Origin: Candidatus Heimdallarchaeota archaeon
Lineage (GTDB): Archaea > Asgardarchaeota > Heimdallarchaeia > JABLTI01
Direction of reading: 5' to 3'
NCBI GenBank assembly: GCA_030614005.1
Contig: JAUWKS010000085.1
Span: forward strand, 1-12,267
DNA length: 12,267 bases
Below are positions 5,296 through 9,846 of the stretch, in pieces. Each line of letters begins with the position of its first letter. Within the stretch, counting starts at the first letter, position 1. The translations under genes were made by a program, and so were the position numbers. The notes under the pieces are model-generated. The model was not told where the DNA came from. It searched no databases and saw only the letters and a list, made by a program, of their open reading frames with translations.

Positions 5296-7482
5296 ATGAC
5301 CTATTCTGTACCAGAAGAAATTGCCCAAGTAGAAATACTTGTGTCTGAAGGAAAATATTCATCAGCTCTAGATGAATTAGACATCATCGATACTACAAGT
5401 AAATTAGATTCTTCTGGAAATATTCTTTGTAAAACCATTAAGGGAAAGATACTTCTTAAATTAGGCGAATATGAGAATGCTTTAGTAAAAGCTGATGAGA
5501 TTTTACAAAACTATCAATATTTAGGAAACTCGTTGTTTGTTTTTGATGCTTATATAATTAAAATTCATGCTCTTGCTAATCTCAACCAAATACCAGAAGC
5601 ATTTGTGCTCTTAGAAAAAAGTATTGAGATTCTCAAATCACTTTCAAGTGAGAGTGTTTCTGAAATAAATCAAAGAAAAGCAGTCGCTTATCTACTTCGA
5701 GGAATCCTTTACGAAGGAAAAAATGAATTAAAACGTTCTCTTGATAACTTTTTACAGAGTCTTTCTCTCTTTCGAGAATTAGATAATAAACCACAAATTG
5801 CTGAAGCATTAACTGCTAACGCAAGAATTTATTTTAAAACAGGAGACGTTATTCGAGCTCAGTTAATTTATCAGCAAAGCTTAGATATTTACAAGGAACT
5901 AGGTAATGAGCTTGATGCTGCTTATGTGTTGAATAATCTTGGAATGATTTATGCATGGAAAGGAGATTATGGGTTAGCTTTAGAGCACAGTCTCCAAAGT
6001 TTGAGTATTAGTGATGAATTGGAAAACGAACGAGCAAAAGTTATTTTTCTACAAAGTATTAGCGAAGTGTTTTTCAAATTAGGAGAATTAGATCGCTCTC
6101 TTGAATATCTTGAAAAATGTTTATCCATTTATGAAGATCAAAATAATAAATCAGGGATAGCCTCTATTCTGAATTTCTTGAGCAGAATATTTTATCGAAA
6201 AGGTGAGATTGAAAAATCCATGGATTTTGCCAAGCAAAGTAAGGAAATCTATGAACAATTAGAAGAAAAACTTGGTCTCGCATCTGTGAATGATACTCTT
6301 GGTAAATTGGAATTAAGTTTAGGAAATGTAGGAAAAGCTCATTCTCTTTTGAAGGAAAGCTTGAACTTTCGAAGTGATCAAGTAAATCGTATGGAAACAA
6401 CTAGTACCCTATTTTGGTTAATTGTAGTTAGTATCGAAAGCAATGCACTAAATCAAGTACAGACATTTCTCCACAGAATTCAAAAAATCATTGAGAAACA
6501 GAAGAATGAATTGAGTGAATTAAGATATCATTTAGCTTCTGCACTAATACTTAAAACTAGTTCAAAGCAAGATATCCTTCGAAAAGCAAAAAATATGCTT
6601 CGAAGTATACTTTCAGGTGTTCTTCTCGATCATGAACTAGTTTCTCTTGCTCGCTATCATTTATGTGAATTATTAATAAAAGAAATTGAATTATTCCACG
6701 AGAAGGATGAAGTACAAAAACTTGCGACAACCATAGACAAATACTATGAGACCGCAAAGCAAATTGAATCGCATACAATGTATGCAGAATGCTTCTGGTT
6801 AAAAGTGCAATTATCTATGATTCGACATAATTATCAAGAGGCAAGAATTCATCTGGACCAAGCTCAACAAATAACTGAAGATAAAGGTTATAGAAGACTA
6901 GCTATGGATATCCCTCGAATGAGAAAAATGTTGGAATCCTATTTTGATTTGAATGTAGAACCAACAATAGATACTCGAGCTAACCTTGTGAATGATTTCT
7001 CTGAACCACTAAATGAAGATGTAATTCGTTTAGTCAATAAAAGAACAATTGATATGCCGCGATTTGAAGATGAAGAACCAGTACTCCTCATAATTGTCTA
7101 TGAAGGAGGGGTAACAATCTATTCGAAGAAATTCTCACAAAAGGAAATGATTGATGAAATGTTTGTTGGAGGATTTCTAACGGCTATTGATTCCTTTATG
7201 CATCAAACATTTGCAACAGGTGGATCAATTGAACGAATAAAACATCAAGAATATACTCTGTTATTGAAAGTCGAAAATCCACTTCTTTTCTGCTATGTCT
7301 ACAAAGGACAATCATTTACAGCAATCCAAAAATTAGATAATATAATTAGTGAACTAAAAAAATCAATTACTATATGGCATGCGCTTGTTAATAATCTAGG
7401 TGAGCAACTTTCTGATAAAGAAAAAGAGCAAATTGAGCAAATGGCAGATAATATCTTTCTTGAAGAAACCAAGCAAGAATAA
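5296..7482 (+). CDS. Tetratricopeptide-repeat protein with C-terminal longin-like domain (Asgard-type)
   Basis: 728 aa. Six exact 40-aa-period TPR-like repeats (e.g. VLNNLGMIYAWKGDYGLALEHSLQSLSI), additional helical repeats on both sides, and a C-terminal ~135-aa domain (VLLIIVYEGGVTIYSKKF...FVGGFLTAIDSF...SIERIKHQEYTLLL...LLFCYVYKG) with the beta-beta-alpha-beta-beta-beta-alpha pattern of longin domains. Confidence 0.8.
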   Translation: MTYSVPEEIAQVEILVSEGKYSSALDELDIIDTTSKLDSSGNILCKTIKGKILLKLGEYENALVKADEILQNYQYLGNSLFVFDAYIIKIHALANLNQIPEAFVLLEKSIEILKSLSSESVSEINQRKAVAYLLRGILYEGKNELKRSLDNFLQSLSLFRELDNKPQIAEALTANARIYFKTGDVIRAQLIYQQSLDIYKELGNELDAAYVLNNLGMIYAWKGDYGLALEHSLQSLSISDELENERAKVIFLQSISEVFFKLGELDRSLEYLEKCLSIYEDQNNKSGIASILNFLSRIFYRKGEIEKSMDFAKQSKEIYEQLEEKLGLASVNDTLGKLELSLGNVGKAHSLLKESLNFRSDQVNRMETTSTLFWLIVVSIESNALNQVQTFLHRIQKIIEKQKNELSELRYHLASALILKTSSKQDILRKAKNMLRSILSGVLLDHELVSLARYHLCELLIKEIELFHEKDEVQKLATTIDKYYETAKQIESHTMYAECFWLKVQLSMIRHNYQEARIHLDQAQQITEDKGYRRLAMDIPRMRKMLESYFDLNVEPTIDTRANLVNDFSEPLNEDVIRLVNKRTIDMPRFEDEEPVLLIIVYEGGVTIYSKKFSQKEMIDEMFVGGFLTAIDSFMHQTFATGGSIERIKHQEYTLLLKVENPLLFCYVYKGQSFTAIQKLDNIISELKKSITIWHALVNNLGEQLSDKEKEQIEQMADNIFLEETKQE
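5686..6405 (+). repeat. Six tandem 120-nt (40-aa) TPR-coding repeats, diverged at the DNA level
   Basis: Repeat starts at 5686, 5806, 5926, 6046, 6166 and 6286 align without gaps in the protein (x2-L-G/S-x2-Y/F-x3-G-x4-A/S-L-x3-x-S-L-x-I/L). Confidence 0.75.
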
Positions 7483-7490
7483 TTTTTTTT
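7483..7490 (+). terminator. U8 tract terminator of the TPR gene
   Basis: T8 immediately after TAA 7480-7482, in the short gap before the convergent cupin gene. Confidence 0.5.
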
Positions 7491-7506
7491 CGCAATCCAT
7501 TTATTA

Positions 7507-7839
7507 TCATTTTTTAGGAATATTCAATGTAATTAGCTTTAATTCTTTTGAGCTATTATTTTTGTATCCGTGTTTTTTTCCTGCAGGAACTTCAACAACA
7601 AGATTCGGTTTAATTTTATATTCCTTGTCTTCAATCCAACCTATCCCAGTTCCCTCTAGATAGAAGAAAATGTGATGATATTTATCAATATGAGATGGAA
7701 ATTCTCCTCCTGGTTCAACCTTTGTGATGACCATTTTTACATCAGACCATTCTTGAGGAATGAGTGATTTTCCAAAAACCTTTGAAGTTAAATTTGATCT
7801 TGTTTGTTTCCAATTTTTTTCATCAATGTGATAATTCAT
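7507..7839 (-). CDS. Small monocupin (cupin_2-like) metalloprotein
   Basis: 110 aa. Motif 1 'PGGEFPSHIDKYHHIFFYLEG' and motif 2 'VEVPAGKKHGYKN'. Ends in TGA followed by two in-frame TAA. Confidence 0.85.
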   Translation of the reverse strand: MNYHIDEKNWKQTRSNLTSKVFGKSLIPQEWSDVKMVITKVEPGGEFPSHIDKYHHIFFYLEGTGIGWIEDKEYKIKPNLVVEVPAGKKHGYKNNSSKELKLITLNIPKK

Positions 7840-7889
7840 ATTTTCAACAGACCTTACGTTTCTACTATATTCAAAGATGCTTTATTTGA

Positions 7890-8084
7890 ATAAAAAATTT
7901 TGTTGGTAATACTAAAATATCCTTAGAAAATCAAGAAGATGTCTTACAATGCCCTAAATGTGAATCATATTTTCAGGGTGAATATCTAAGAGAATGGGTA
8001 AAAGAAAAGAAAATCTGCCTAGTATGCAAATTTCCCTTAATGATTGTCACTAAAGATAAACCAAGAATCAATCTTTATCCGTAA
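7890..8084 (+). other. Unannotated RING-finger-derived reading frame (single-zinc variant or pseudogene); no in-frame ATG/GTG/TTG upstream of the Cys motifs
   Basis: 64 open codons between TGA 7887-7889 and TAA 8082-8084: IKNFVGNTKISLENQEDVLQCPKCESYFQGEYLREWVKEKKICLVCKFPLMIVTKDKPRINLYP. This matches the pattern CxxC..I..x..CPxCxxxFHxxHLxEWxxxxxxCPxCxxPL of archaeal/Asgard RING proteins. It overlaps the convergent DegV stop by 17 nt. Confidence 0.6.
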
Positions 8085-8955
8085 ACCAACTTTCCGTCCA
8101 ATTTCCTATCCAAGTAATGGCTAAAGCTCCAGTGCCTATATGTGCACCTATTGATGGTCCAATAGCAACAAGAGCAACATCTTTTGGTAATTTTGGTAAA
8201 TCTTTGATTGATTCGTAATATTTTTCTGCAAGTGATTTATCATTTGTATAGCCAATCCAAAGGATATCATAATCCAAATTTGCGATAATCTTTGGGGCGA
8301 TTCGTACCATTCCTTTGTATGCTTCTTCAGAGCCGGTAACTGAAAGGAAGCTTTCAACCAAACCATCTCTAACTTGCATTATTGGTTTCTTGTTCAATAA
8401 TTTACCAAAAATTTTCTTTGCTCGTCCTATCCTTCCGCCACGATGGAGATATTCTAACGTGTCCAATGTGCAAACAATTCTTGATTTTGGAATGAGACTA
8501 TTTTTAAGAGCGGCTAATATTTCTTCTTTGCTTTTTCCTTCTTGATTTAGCTTTCCAGCAATCAGAGCAATCATTCCTAAAGGAAGCGTAGTAGTATTTC
8601 CATCTATAGGATTAATATCCTTATCTGGCAATTGATTTATTGCTAATTGTACTGAATTCATTGTTCCTGACATATTTGGTGTGATGTGTATTGAAATAAT
8701 TGTTTCATAACCTTGGTCGAAAATTTTTGTATACACTTCTAGGAATTCCTTTGCAGAAGGTTGAGAAGTTTTAGGCCATTCATATATTCCGCTTTCAACC
8801 ATTCCGTAAAACTCACCAGGTGTTAAAGTAACTTTATCCTTGAATCGATCCTCACCAAAGAAGACATTTAGTGGAACTATCTCAATATCATACTTTTCTG
8901 CTAAATCTTTAGGTAAATCACTTGTAGAATCTGTAACTATTTTTATTTTTGACAA
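8068..8955 (-). CDS. degV: DegV/FakB family fatty-acid-binding protein, paralog 1
   Basis: 295 aa. Family motifs 'IVTDSTSDLP', 'TSQPS', 'SGT..S', 'LEYLHRGGRIG', 'KPI...DG' and 'IGAHIG'. TTG start with CAGGAGA SD. Confidence 0.93.
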   Translation of the reverse strand: MSKIKIVTDSTSDLPKDLAEKYDIEIVPLNVFFGEDRFKDKVTLTPGEFYGMVESGIYEWPKTSQPSAKEFLEVYTKIFDQGYETIISIHITPNMSGTMNSVQLAINQLPDKDINPIDGNTTTLPLGMIALIAGKLNQEGKSKEEILAALKNSLIPKSRIVCTLDTLEYLHRGGRIGRAKKIFGKLLNKKPIMQVRDGLVESFLSVTGSEEAYKGMVRIAPKIIANLDYDILWIGYTNDKSLAEKYYESIKDLPKLPKDVALVAIGPSIGAHIGTGALAITWIGNWTESWFTDKD

Positions 8956-8962
8956 ATTGTTA

Positions 8963-8969
8963 TCTCCTG
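8963..8969 (-). promoter_or_regulatory. Shine-Dalgarno CAGGAGA of DegV paralog 1
   Basis: tctcctg on the + strand, 7 nt upstream of TTG 8955. Confidence 0.7.
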
Positions 8970-9141
8970 CTATATTAAAACTATTAAAAAATCAAAGTAG
9001 TAATTTAAAAAACTTGCTAAATAGAAAAAGATGCTAATGACTTGACTATTTAATTAACATTTGTGGAGAGAACAAAGAAATTGAAATATTACTACTCCCT
9101 ATTTCTCTTTTCCATTAGTTTTTTTTATTTAAATTCAAAAA

Positions 9142-9846
9142 TTATTCTTCTATAACTTTCTTCAATTCCCTGGCATTAGCAACATTGTGTTCAAGATCTT
9201 TAAGATTTGGTATCATTCCATCCCAACTAGATTCCTCTACAAATTTAGTTAAAAATTCATGTAACTCTTCTGGTTCGAATTTTGCTACTTCAAGTGGAGA
9301 ATCTAAACCAGCATCATAATACAATCGTGAAAGTTTAGTTCTAACATATCCCATTCTTGTTATATCTGAAAGCTTTACTAATTCTAAAACCGCTATTTCT
9401 GGTATATCTAATTGTTTTGCAATTTGCTCTCTCTGAACTTTTGTTTTACCAGCTTCTAACATCTGTTCAACATCTTTTATTCCGATGGAAGCGAGTTTTG
9501 TTACATATTCTTGATCGATATTAAGGAACCCTTTAATTGGAAATATTCTTCTTGATTTTTTAATTCTCTCTTCTCTTAGAGTTCTTACACAATCAAGCAT
9601 CTCATCATTTTCAATAAATCGAAAATAGTTCATAAGAACATAAAGAAATCCTTTTGCAGATTTCTTTGTTGTTTCAATTTTTTTAACATAAGATTCAATG
9701 TCATCTAATCTCACTTCTGAGAGTTTTTTGCTCTTTTCGTTTCCAAGATACTCACTGAATCGTTTCACAGTAAGAACATTTCTCTCAACGACATTTTGCT
9801 TCTTACCTTTTCTTCTTAGATATTTTCTAAATTTTTCTTTATCCAT
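9142..9846 (-). CDS. Integrase N-terminal SAM-like (core-binding) domain fused to a DUF4332 helix-hairpin-helix domain; putative nucleic-acid-binding protein
   Basis: 234 aa. Residues ~1-95 (FRKYL..KGKKQNVVERNV..VKRFSEYL...L.EV..DDI..YV...SAKGFLYVLMNYFRF) follow the four-helix integrase SAM-like pattern. Residues ~105-230 (KLASIGIKDVEQMLEAG.T...R..IA.QLDI...VLELVKLSDITRMGYV..KLSRLYYDAGLDSPLEVAK..PEELH...PNLKDL...VANA) follow DUF4332. No R-H-R-Y catalytic domain. Confidence 0.72.
   Translation of the reverse strand: MDKEKFRKYLRRKGKKQNVVERNVLTVKRFSEYLGNEKSKKLSEVRLDDIESYVKKIETTKKSAKGFLYVLMNYFRFIENDEMLDCVRTLREERIKKSRRIFPIKGFLNIDQEYVTKLASIGIKDVEQMLEAGKTKVQREQIAKQLDIPEIAVLELVKLSDITRMGYVRTKLSRLYYDAGLDSPLEVAKFEPEELHEFLTKFVEESSWDGMIPNLKDLEHNVANARELKKVIEE

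Follow-up and report, generated by a model that had tools for sequence, protein, structure and literature searches.

This work concerns an open reading frame at positions 7890–8084 on the forward strand of a 12,267-nucleotide stretch of DNA from a Candidatus Heimdallarchaeota archaeon (GenBank assembly GCA_030614005.1, contig JAUWKS010000085.1), the whole of which we call the window. The encoded peptide carries four cysteines and a tryptophan placed as in the RING domain of ubiquitin ligases (E3s), in which ligands 1, 2, 5 and 6 form zinc site 1, proximal to the ubiquitin-conjugating enzyme (E2), and ligands 3, 4, 7 and 8 form the distal site 2. A sequence-only reading had taken it for a "half-RING" whose site 1 was lost under selection, possibly a mini E3 or an E2-binding inhibitor. 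We find that the frame is very probably a pseudogene fragment which retains the 3′ third of a P0040-type Heimdallarchaeial gene (P0040 being an intact relative on another contig, L051), and that the family of this gene has a putative one-zinc RING-H2-like domain. The remnant would most likely be neither translated nor functional.

Results

The open frame between the cupin and DegV genes

Positions 7890–8084 (+) translate to exactly the 64 residues quoted in the sequence-only reading, and the four cysteine codons (7950, 7959, 8016 and 8025) lie where it had placed them; the tryptophan codon is at 7995. The frame runs from stop to stop (TGA 7887–7889 to TAA 8082–8084), occupies the 228-nt gap between a cupin gene and a DegV gene, both on the reverse strand, and overlaps the 3′ end of the latter by 17 nt. 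Upstream of Met51 (ATG 8040–8042), it contains no ATG, GTG or TTG, and its sole nominal start is the ATA at 7890 (translation table 11). The features of the locus are as follows, G001 being a sister genome:

7890..8084, + strand: 64-codon frame, probable remnant of a transmembrane (TM)-anchored one-zinc RING gene; stop to stop, only nominal start ATA 7890
7890..7909, + strand: codons 1–7 (IKNFVGN), outside the RING; 7507–7903 aligns to L051 2558–2953, upstream of the ATG at L051 3001
7904..7910, no strand: deletion junction, 394 nt (L051 2954–3347) replaced by 6 nt, from the alignment to L051; junction shared with G001
7911..8081, + strand: homologous remnant, P0040-type codons 117–178, from the ligand-2 Thr to the C-terminus; BLASTP 64% identity, E 4e-24
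7950..7961, + strand: ligand pair 3/4 (C-P-K-C knuckle) of the retained zinc site 2; no variation across the family alignments
7974..7985, + strand: Q-G-E-Y at the H-x2-H place of the full-RING paralogs (ligands 5 and 6, lost site 1); the intact ortholog has the same Q and Y
7995..7997, + strand: helix Trp, an E2-contact residue in RING E3s, kept; found in 57/57 half-pattern representatives and, as W54, in the predicted E2 interface
8016..8027, + strand: C-L-V-C knuckle with ligands 7 and 8; Leu (8019–8021) replaces the Pro of CPVC, a nearly invariant residue and P62 of the predicted E2 interface
7507..7839, − strand: cupin gene (Pfam Cupin_2, 3e-14), synteny anchor beginning 51 nt from the frame, and also the neighbour in L051, G010 and G001
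8068..8955, − strand: DegV gene (Pfam DegV, 1e-73), convergent, overlapping the last 17 nt of the frame; synteny anchor across the genus

In contigs of three public runs from two studies, we observed no indel over 7881–7917, and the one strain that differs, at 7874 and 7897, does so by substitutions only. The sequence of 7890–8084 is thus real, and a sequencing error or homopolymer frameshift at the A6T4 run is ruled out. The public runs that contain the window come from cold-seep and marine-sediment metagenomes. No RNA data set was listed as containing the stretch, a result that weighs neither for nor against its expression. When metagenome contigs were searched with the 64-residue peptide for related loci, no relative was confirmed. 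In two cold-seep runs, short contigs of high depth (67x and 43x) match only a stretch of 34 bases (window 7980–8013), with 91% identity; these leave homology beyond it and probably represent another abundant organism or a low-complexity A/G-rich stretch. Against Pfam, the peptide gives a weak match to zf-RING_2 (E 0.006, 17.2 bits), under the cut-off, and against the profile of the family described below it scores 59.7 bits (E 3e-16, among 27,346 open reading frames of the genome).

Truncation relative to the intact ortholog P0040

P0040, found by a half-RING domain profile search over 1.84 billion cluster representatives, is a protein of 178 residues with three predicted TM segments, and its domain reads C-M-I-T-K-I-A-L-D-K-Q-E-N-I-L-Q-C-P-N-C-E-S-Y-F-Q-E-D-Y-L-R-E-W-V-K-E-K-K-I-C-P-V-C-K-F. 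The 64% identity of the window peptide to P0040 holds from Thr8 onward, and the DNA of window 7910–8040 is 87% identical to L051. The gene order on L051 is that of the window, with a tetratricopeptide repeat (TPR) protein, the cupin gene (−), P0040 (+), DegV (−) and a second DegV (−), and there too DegV overlaps P0040 by 17 nt.

Two blocks of DNA match between these contigs, window 7507–7903 with L051 2558–2953 and window 7910–9031 with L051 3348–4483, leaving between them 394 nt in L051 versus 6 nt in the window. The missing 394 nt carry a TATA-like stretch, the ATG (L051 3001), codons 1–116, which encode the TM helices, the linker and the N-terminal β-hairpin of the domain, and the codons of the loop-1 C-M-I. 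The window copy is thus not an intact gene, having no canonical start and lacking codons 1–116 of its 178-residue ortholog. Residues 1–7 of the frame correspond to L051 intergenic DNA upstream of the gene, and RING homology begins at Thr8 (7910/7911). Asn3 and Gly6, which had been aligned with ligands 1 and 2, come from this former intergenic DNA; ligand 1 is deleted, not substituted, and the ligand-2 position is Thr8, which is Thr in intact P0040 as well (C-M-I-T). The assignment of Gln and Tyr to ligands 5 and 6 holds, Gln29 and Tyr32 standing at the His-x2-His place of the full-RING paralogs.

Two further interpretations of the ends of the frame were set aside. The TGT at 7901–7903, considered as a frameshifted remnant of Cys1, lies in a stretch homologous to the intergenic DNA upstream of the intact gene and is ruled out as such. 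The long C-terminal tail, considered as a stop loss peculiar to the window, was revised since P0040 ends at the same TAA (...RRINPYL); the copies in G001 and in a second sister genome, G010, stop earlier, at a TAG.

An 8-bp direct repeat, TATGATTA, is present at L051 2957–2964 and 3342–3349, on either side of the segment deleted in the window and in G001. This suggests that the deletion was perhaps mediated by the TATGATTA repeat, with a junction that departs from the simple product. On our reading, the parent was a P0040-type gene whose product of 178 residues begins with two or three TM helices, continues with a linker and ends in a RING-H2-like domain; a deletion of about 390 bp joined upstream intergenic DNA to codon 117. 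Along with the region proximal to the promoter, the gene thereby lost its ATG and the codons for the membrane anchor, for the N-terminal β-hairpin of the domain and for the Cys1-Met-Ile of loop 1. The event left behind the knuckles of zinc site 2, the helix and its Trp, with no canonical start codon.

Note that the window and L051 also differ farther downstream, between the two DegV paralogs: window 9142–9846 (−) holds a 234-residue gene with DUF4332 and a weak phage-integrase SAM-like N-terminal match, and the matching gap of L051, 677 nt versus about 1100 nt, is without a called gene and aligns in short patches only.

The locus across the genus

In G001, whose DegV is 92% identical to that of the window, the deletion junction is the same, and the C3/C4 region is destroyed by several indels, the in-frame rest being only W-V-E-E-E-T-I-C-P-V-C-K-F-K-L-K-I-T-I-K-K-stop. 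In G010 (DegV 91% identical; L029 1031–1480, G010:C44), the gene is full-length with TM helices, and it carries a Trp codon changed from TGG to TAG and a Cys7 changed to Tyr, lesions that represent an independent inactivation of the same gene. Given the lesions in G001 and G010, the locus is in the course of being lost in the lineage that contains the window.

RING-like genes adjoin the DegV ortholog in G003–G006 and G008–G010. In the more distant genomes of the same genus (G003–G006, G008 and G009), the DegV ortholog usually stands beside a tandem pair, made up of TM-anchored half-RING genes convergent on the DegV 3′ end (L014 in G009, L015 in G005, L016 in G004, L033 in G008, L034 in G006 and L037 in G003). 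The upstream copy of the pair is TM-less, 75 residues long and has Cys7 changed to Tyr in G009, and is a 46-codon fragment in G008. Overall, the half-RING genes beside DegV form a dynamic small gene array. Elsewhere in the window's genome, we found at least one intact half-RING gene of another subtype (G000:C93:9680-10597 (+), about 250–300 residues, with TM helices and C-M-I-T ... K-x2-L ... CPVC) and a second short fragment that matches loop 1 only (G000:C63:14664-14861 (−)).

A family of intact half-RING proteins

The window's genome encodes about twenty RING paralogs, nearly all with the pattern C-x2-C ... C-x2-C-x4-H-x2-H ... W ... C-x2-C. The best same-genus matches of the frame are proteins of 165–190 residues that combine N-terminal hydrophobic helices with a C-terminal domain of the form C-[RM]-I-S ... 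Q-C-P-x-C-x-S-Y-F-[IL]-x2-Y-L-x2-W ... C-P-V-C. The alignment of these half-RING proteins with the eight-ligand paralogs is gapless in the RING core. Site 1 differs at three of its four positions (C2 to Ser/Thr, H5 to Ile/Leu/Gln, H6 to Tyr) and retains C1; site 2 retains all four Cys. In 26 intact sequences, the half pattern shows no variation. Across the family, the four site-1 positions read C, S/T, I/L/Q/K and Y/L, to be compared with deleted, T, Q and Y in the window. Since intact proteins of the same genus show the loss at site 1, the half-RING is a trait shared by a family of intact genes and the normal state of the parent family, and did not originate at the window locus.

Homologs with the four-cysteine pattern on which the half-RING idea was built were found in number. 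Among the best 150 cluster representatives at 50% identity, 57 combine no more than two Cys/His at site 1 with four Cys at site 2 (CSCCIYCC, CSCCLYCC, CSCCKLCC, CTCCQYCC and others), and 81 show the full CCCCHHCC pattern. A TM segment is predicted in 54 of the 57 half-pattern representatives, and all of them have the Trp. With the four site-1 columns left out of the tree, the half/full label changes 8 times (at least 2 of the changes being forced by supported branches) versus 36.7 for shuffled labels, from which we conclude that the half-RING state had few origins followed by long persistence. These comparisons support the view that loss of site 1, with site 2 and the Trp kept, is a selected and heritable state. 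The claim of selection rather than decay, originally made for the window frame, is thus carried by the family, with its dozens of intact, diverged proteins clustered on the tree; it fails as an account of the origin of the window copy, which is a truncated relic.

The domains of the family lie below what is called a RING by profile. At E ≤ 0.01, zf-RING_2 matches 50 of the 51 family domains scanned, and the intact half-RING proteins scanned score 19–24 bits versus 27.5–33.7 for the four eight-ligand paralogs scanned, the gathering cut-off being 27.3. The family does not show the eight ligands of a full RING, nor is it devoid of zinc ligands as a U-box is, the four site-2 Cys being invariant. 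W54 is likewise invariant, and I25 and P62 are nearly so. This pattern points to a single zinc bound at the distal site (ligands 3, 4, 7 and 8), and in the parent site 1 would be filled by packing of the Cys, Ser/Thr, Ile/Leu and Tyr. The named members are annotated as "hypothetical protein" of Heimdallarchaeota or Asgard-group metagenome-assembled genomes (MAGs), one of them being labelled Zixibacteria.

Note that other families of the class (L017, L020, L022 and L024–L027), proteins of about 1000 residues that end in a RING, mimic site-1 variants in the profile alignment. In their RING, the first pair is shifted by three residues (C-I-I-C-R-x-S) and Ser stands at the place of the helix Trp (L-x-E-S-V-K), and these domains hold all eight ligands.

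Predicted fold and E2 interface

The domain of an intact relative (69 residues) was predicted by AlphaFold2 with a mean predicted local distance difference test score (pLDDT) of 93.7, as an N-terminal β-hairpin, two short strands, a helix and a C-terminal strand. From the same alignment, the window peptide reached a pLDDT of 66.6 and was confident only over residues 17–50, both ends falling below 50. With the family domain model, the top Foldseek matches are RNF165, RNF38 and RNF13 (template modelling scores of 0.6–0.7, root-mean-square deviation of 1.7 Å over 57 columns), and a VIA search gave Z of 8.2–7.5 over 60–65 residues. The structural neighbours are all RING-type (RNF165/Ark2C, RNF38, RNF12, RNF13, RNF24, Hrd1 and RMR1 in the PDB; RNF181, NIP, RHA and ATL proteins among Swiss-Prot models), with Prp19 and other U-boxes among the weaker matches. 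A profile search of PDB sequences agrees with this picture, with Arkadia (E 4e-8), RNF24, RNF165 and RNF38 in the range 4e-8 to 1e-6. No SP-RING, alpha-COP or IFT121 chain is among the best 50 structural matches, which does not count against a likeness of fold. The family domain is thus predicted to be a RING fold and not a plain zinc ribbon, the outcome that would have undone the half-RING idea.

The window's genome has three UBC-type E2 genes, and we co-folded the 157-residue product of one of them, which has an HPN motif and the catalytic Cys, with the domain of intact P0040 rather than with the remnant. The pair scored an ipSAE of 0.67 versus 0.01 for the best control, passing a mark reached by 58 of 80 solved complexes and by 2 of 110 mismatched pairs, with the proviso that RING and E2 are a textbook pair and that the pass may show only likeness to solved complexes. 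Three runs agreed in at least 96% of contacts, with a partner pLDDT of at least 81. On the RING side, the predicted interface is composed of loop 1 (M24–I28), the helix (Y50, E53, W54 and E57) and loop 2 (P62-V63-K65), and on the E2 side of helix 1, the P67-F68 loop and T99-P100-A101; the contacts involving I25 have the lowest expected error. The interface so predicted is canonical. On this model, the parent family would act as a membrane-anchored E3, with the loop-1 Ile, helix Trp and loop-2 Pro serving to recruit an Asgard E2. The window copy has lost M24 and I25 and has Leu in place of P62, so that two of the three predicted contact elements are damaged.

Selection on the remnant and its age

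Selection on the remnant is the weakest point of its interpretation as a pseudogene, and a number of observations weigh against that interpretation. Over the core (Thr8–Pro49), the comparison with L051 gives 11.5 nonsynonymous and 8.5 synonymous changes, that is, proportions of nonsynonymous (pN) and synonymous (pS) differences of 0.111 and 0.375 and a ratio of 0.30, well below 1, the neighbouring genes having pN/pS of 0.11–0.21. A three-way codon comparison, polarised by eye with the help of G010 and G001, assigns 3 nonsynonymous (Asp>Glu, Ile>Val and Pro>Leu) and 5 synonymous changes to the branch of the window, and both Cys codons of the last knuckle have changed from TGT to TGC; note that four of these five synonymous changes fall in one 12-nt cluster over the last knuckle and may be one event. 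Under neutral simulation, the open frame, the four Cys and the Trp survive together in 13% of the runs at 0.08 substitutions per site and in 2% at 0.16. The core is well preserved (four Cys, Trp, Tyr-Phe and the Lys after C8), only Pro44Leu touches an almost invariant position, and the frame is opened by ATA, a nominal start in table 11. To these must be added the two provisos on the co-fold, its use of the intact domain and the textbook nature of the pair. Gene conversion from a paralog, considered for the 12-nt cluster at C7–C8, was rejected as no donor was found in the genome. The ratio of nonsynonymous to synonymous substitution rates relative to G010 is unreliable, with only about 25 synonymous sites near saturation.

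A mosaic comparison of window 6800–8750 with L030 (G001), L051 and L042 (G010) bears on the age of the remnant. For the TPR gene (89.2% identity), the RING core (87.2%) and DegV (89.5%), L051 is the nearest of these to the window, which also has the derived V-K-E-K-K-I and Y-F-Q of L051. For the cupin gene (89.4%) and the junction (90.0%), G001 is nearest, and L051 reaches 85.3% and 76.9%, respectively. These data suggest a recombination patch of about 400 nt in the window. Somewhat tentatively, given the modest support, we propose that the deletion allele could have been acquired by homologous recombination from a G001-like lineage and placed beside the 3′ part of a gene that was until recently intact. 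If the recombination was recent, the remnant would be young, and its good preservation would be explained without a present function.

Discussion

The pseudogene interpretation has to be weighed against the view that the truncated frame is still expressed, for instance if the cupin promoter also yields a divergent transcript that is translated from the ATA at 7890. The product would be a soluble 64-residue fragment with one zinc, which might work as a weak E3, as a decoy for E2 or as a dominant-negative partner for the intact paralogs. We consider this unlikely, yet it draws on the kept core residues, on the pN/pS of 0.30 and the synonymous lean of the branch changes, and on the low retention in simulations at the faster neutral rates; a recent arrival of the deletion allele by recombination would also explain the good preservation. 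The ATA is nominally allowed as a start, but no canonical start exists, and the same truncated allele has decayed further in G001. A TATA-like element at 7862–7870, about 25 nt upstream of 7890, could serve such a transcript; the same element stands about 26 nt upstream of the ATG of the cupin gene, which fully accounts for it. Short TM-less relatives of 73–103 residues (P0036, P0039 and P0041) offer a precedent of sorts, but they retain Cys1 and the hairpin, and contig ends may have cut them short. The window frame has lost the N-terminal β-hairpin, Cys1 and the loop-1 Ile, its loop-2 Pro is Leu, and its model is of low confidence outside residues 17–50. The mini E3 or E2-binding inhibitor of the sequence-only reading is not supported at this locus, where the frame is 5′-truncated and the orthologs of two sister genomes are broken by other lesions; the co-fold proposed there speaks for the P0040 domain and not for a remnant without I25 and with Leu for P62.

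Far less probable still is a programmed +1 shift out of the short ATG frame at 7877 (MLYLNKKFCW*), which would yield a 68-residue protein whose Cys replaces ligand 1. The ATG lies 13 nt upstream in the +1-shifted register and the TGT at 7901–7903 falls at the C1 place of the alignment, but both this TGT and the short frame in its entirety correspond by homology to L051 2935–2953, which is intergenic, and hold no remnant of C1, no slippery or stimulatory signal is evident, and the short frame is one codon shorter in G001. The weak Pfam match of the peptide alone (17 bits) might suggest a frame open by chance, or a generic CxxC...CxxC zinc ribbon without relation to RING. Both are refuted by the match to the intact syntenic ortholog P0040 (E 4e-24), by a family fold that matches RING-H2 E3 domains over 60–65 of 69 residues and by the gapless RING-core alignment to the eight-ligand paralogs.

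The pseudogene interpretation of 7890–8084 averts a false annotation as a "mini E3" and shifts the interest to the parent family. Sizeable and unannotated, this family comprises TM-anchored RING-H2-like proteins of Heimdallarchaeia-type Asgard archaea; it has stably given up the E2-proximal zinc site, keeps the E2-contact residues and coexists with eukaryote-like E2s. If active, its members would be simple archaeal counterparts of the ATL/RNF24-type membrane E3s and an independent natural experiment on one-zinc RING function, as in the SP-RINGs.

Several known domains share part of this design. The U-box has the RING fold and no zinc site, both sites being replaced by salt bridges or hydrogen bonds; it resembles the family in having fewer metal sites on a RING fold, and differs from it in that site 2 of the family is kept by four invariant Cys. 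The sequence-only reading had placed the half-RING between RING and U-box, which is too strong, as the one-zinc arrangement is already known in SP-RINGs and other RING-like domains (PMC10873205, PMC4678705). One-zinc RINGs that keep the distal site are thus not new, and it is the family itself that is unannotated. The UBR4 hemiRING is a one-zinc, RING-related E3 module that still binds E2 (PMC10873205); it keeps the proximal site and has lost the distal one, the reverse of the family, which is thus not of the hemiRING kind. Among the prokaryotic RINGs treated in one account (PMC11354881), degenerate ones with only two ligand pairs are described, and Prok-RING_1 matches 39 of the 51 family domains weakly. 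Unlike these, the family is from Asgard (Heimdallarchaeia-labelled) MAGs, TM-anchored, closest to RING-H2 and found with a UBC-type E2 in the same genome.

In the RING-like domain at the C-terminus of alpha-COP, the second-site ligands are strongly conserved and those of the first site are substituted save for a highly conserved first Cys (PMC4678705), which is exactly the ligand pattern of the family. The alpha-COP and IFT121 fingers differ in standing at the end of large β-propeller/solenoid coat proteins that are not known E3s. Pfam Zf_2nd_IFT121 is found weakly in 35 of the 51 family domains (best E 2.9e-6, just under the cut-off) and shows no match at E up to 1 in the four eight-ligand paralogs scanned; this similarity may perhaps reflect only the shared ligand pattern. 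COPI_C also appears weakly in family domains. SP-RINGs, the domains of the Siz/PIAS and Nse2/Mms21 SUMO E3s, have one zinc, the distal site being kept, as opposed to the UBR4 hemiRING (PMC10873205), and the E2-proximal site being replaced by non-metal contacts, so that they keep the same half as the family. The family has their single distal zinc by ligand pattern only: zf-MIZ and zf-Nse are outside the 25 Pfam families listed for the 51 domains, and Siz, PIAS and Nse2 are absent from the PDB-sequence profile matches at E ≤ 0.01, which are almost only RING E3 chains, mostly RING-H2. Since the family derives from archaeal eight-ligand RING paralogs, its likeness to SP-RINGs appears to be convergent and would not imply a SUMO system. 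That the intact family is a working Asgard membrane one-zinc RING E3 which shares ancestry with the eukaryotic second-site-only fingers, of the alpha-COP/IFT type or SP-RINGs, is in our view decidedly doubtful; if true, the one-zinc RING design would predate eukaryotes.

By descent and fold, the family belongs with the RING-H2 domains of small membrane-anchored E3s. The eukaryotic members of this group (plant ATL, RHA and NIP proteins, RNF24, the PA-TM-RING proteins RNF13/RMR, and Hrd1/gp78) have the same layout of N-terminal TM and C-terminal RING, and the ATL/RNF24-type E3s provide the best structural and profile matches of the family (RNF165, RNF38, RNF12, RNF13, RNF24, ATL and RNF181). The family differs from them in being archaeal and scoring 19–24 bits against the zf-RING_2 cut-off of 27.3, in a site 1 that keeps only the first Cys (C-x-I-S/T and [I/L/Q]-x2-Y instead of C-x2-C and H-x2-C/H), and in a second ligand pair that forms a C-x2-C knuckle and not C-x-H. 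Both share the loop-1 Ile, the helix Trp, the CP-x-C and a basic residue after the last Cys.

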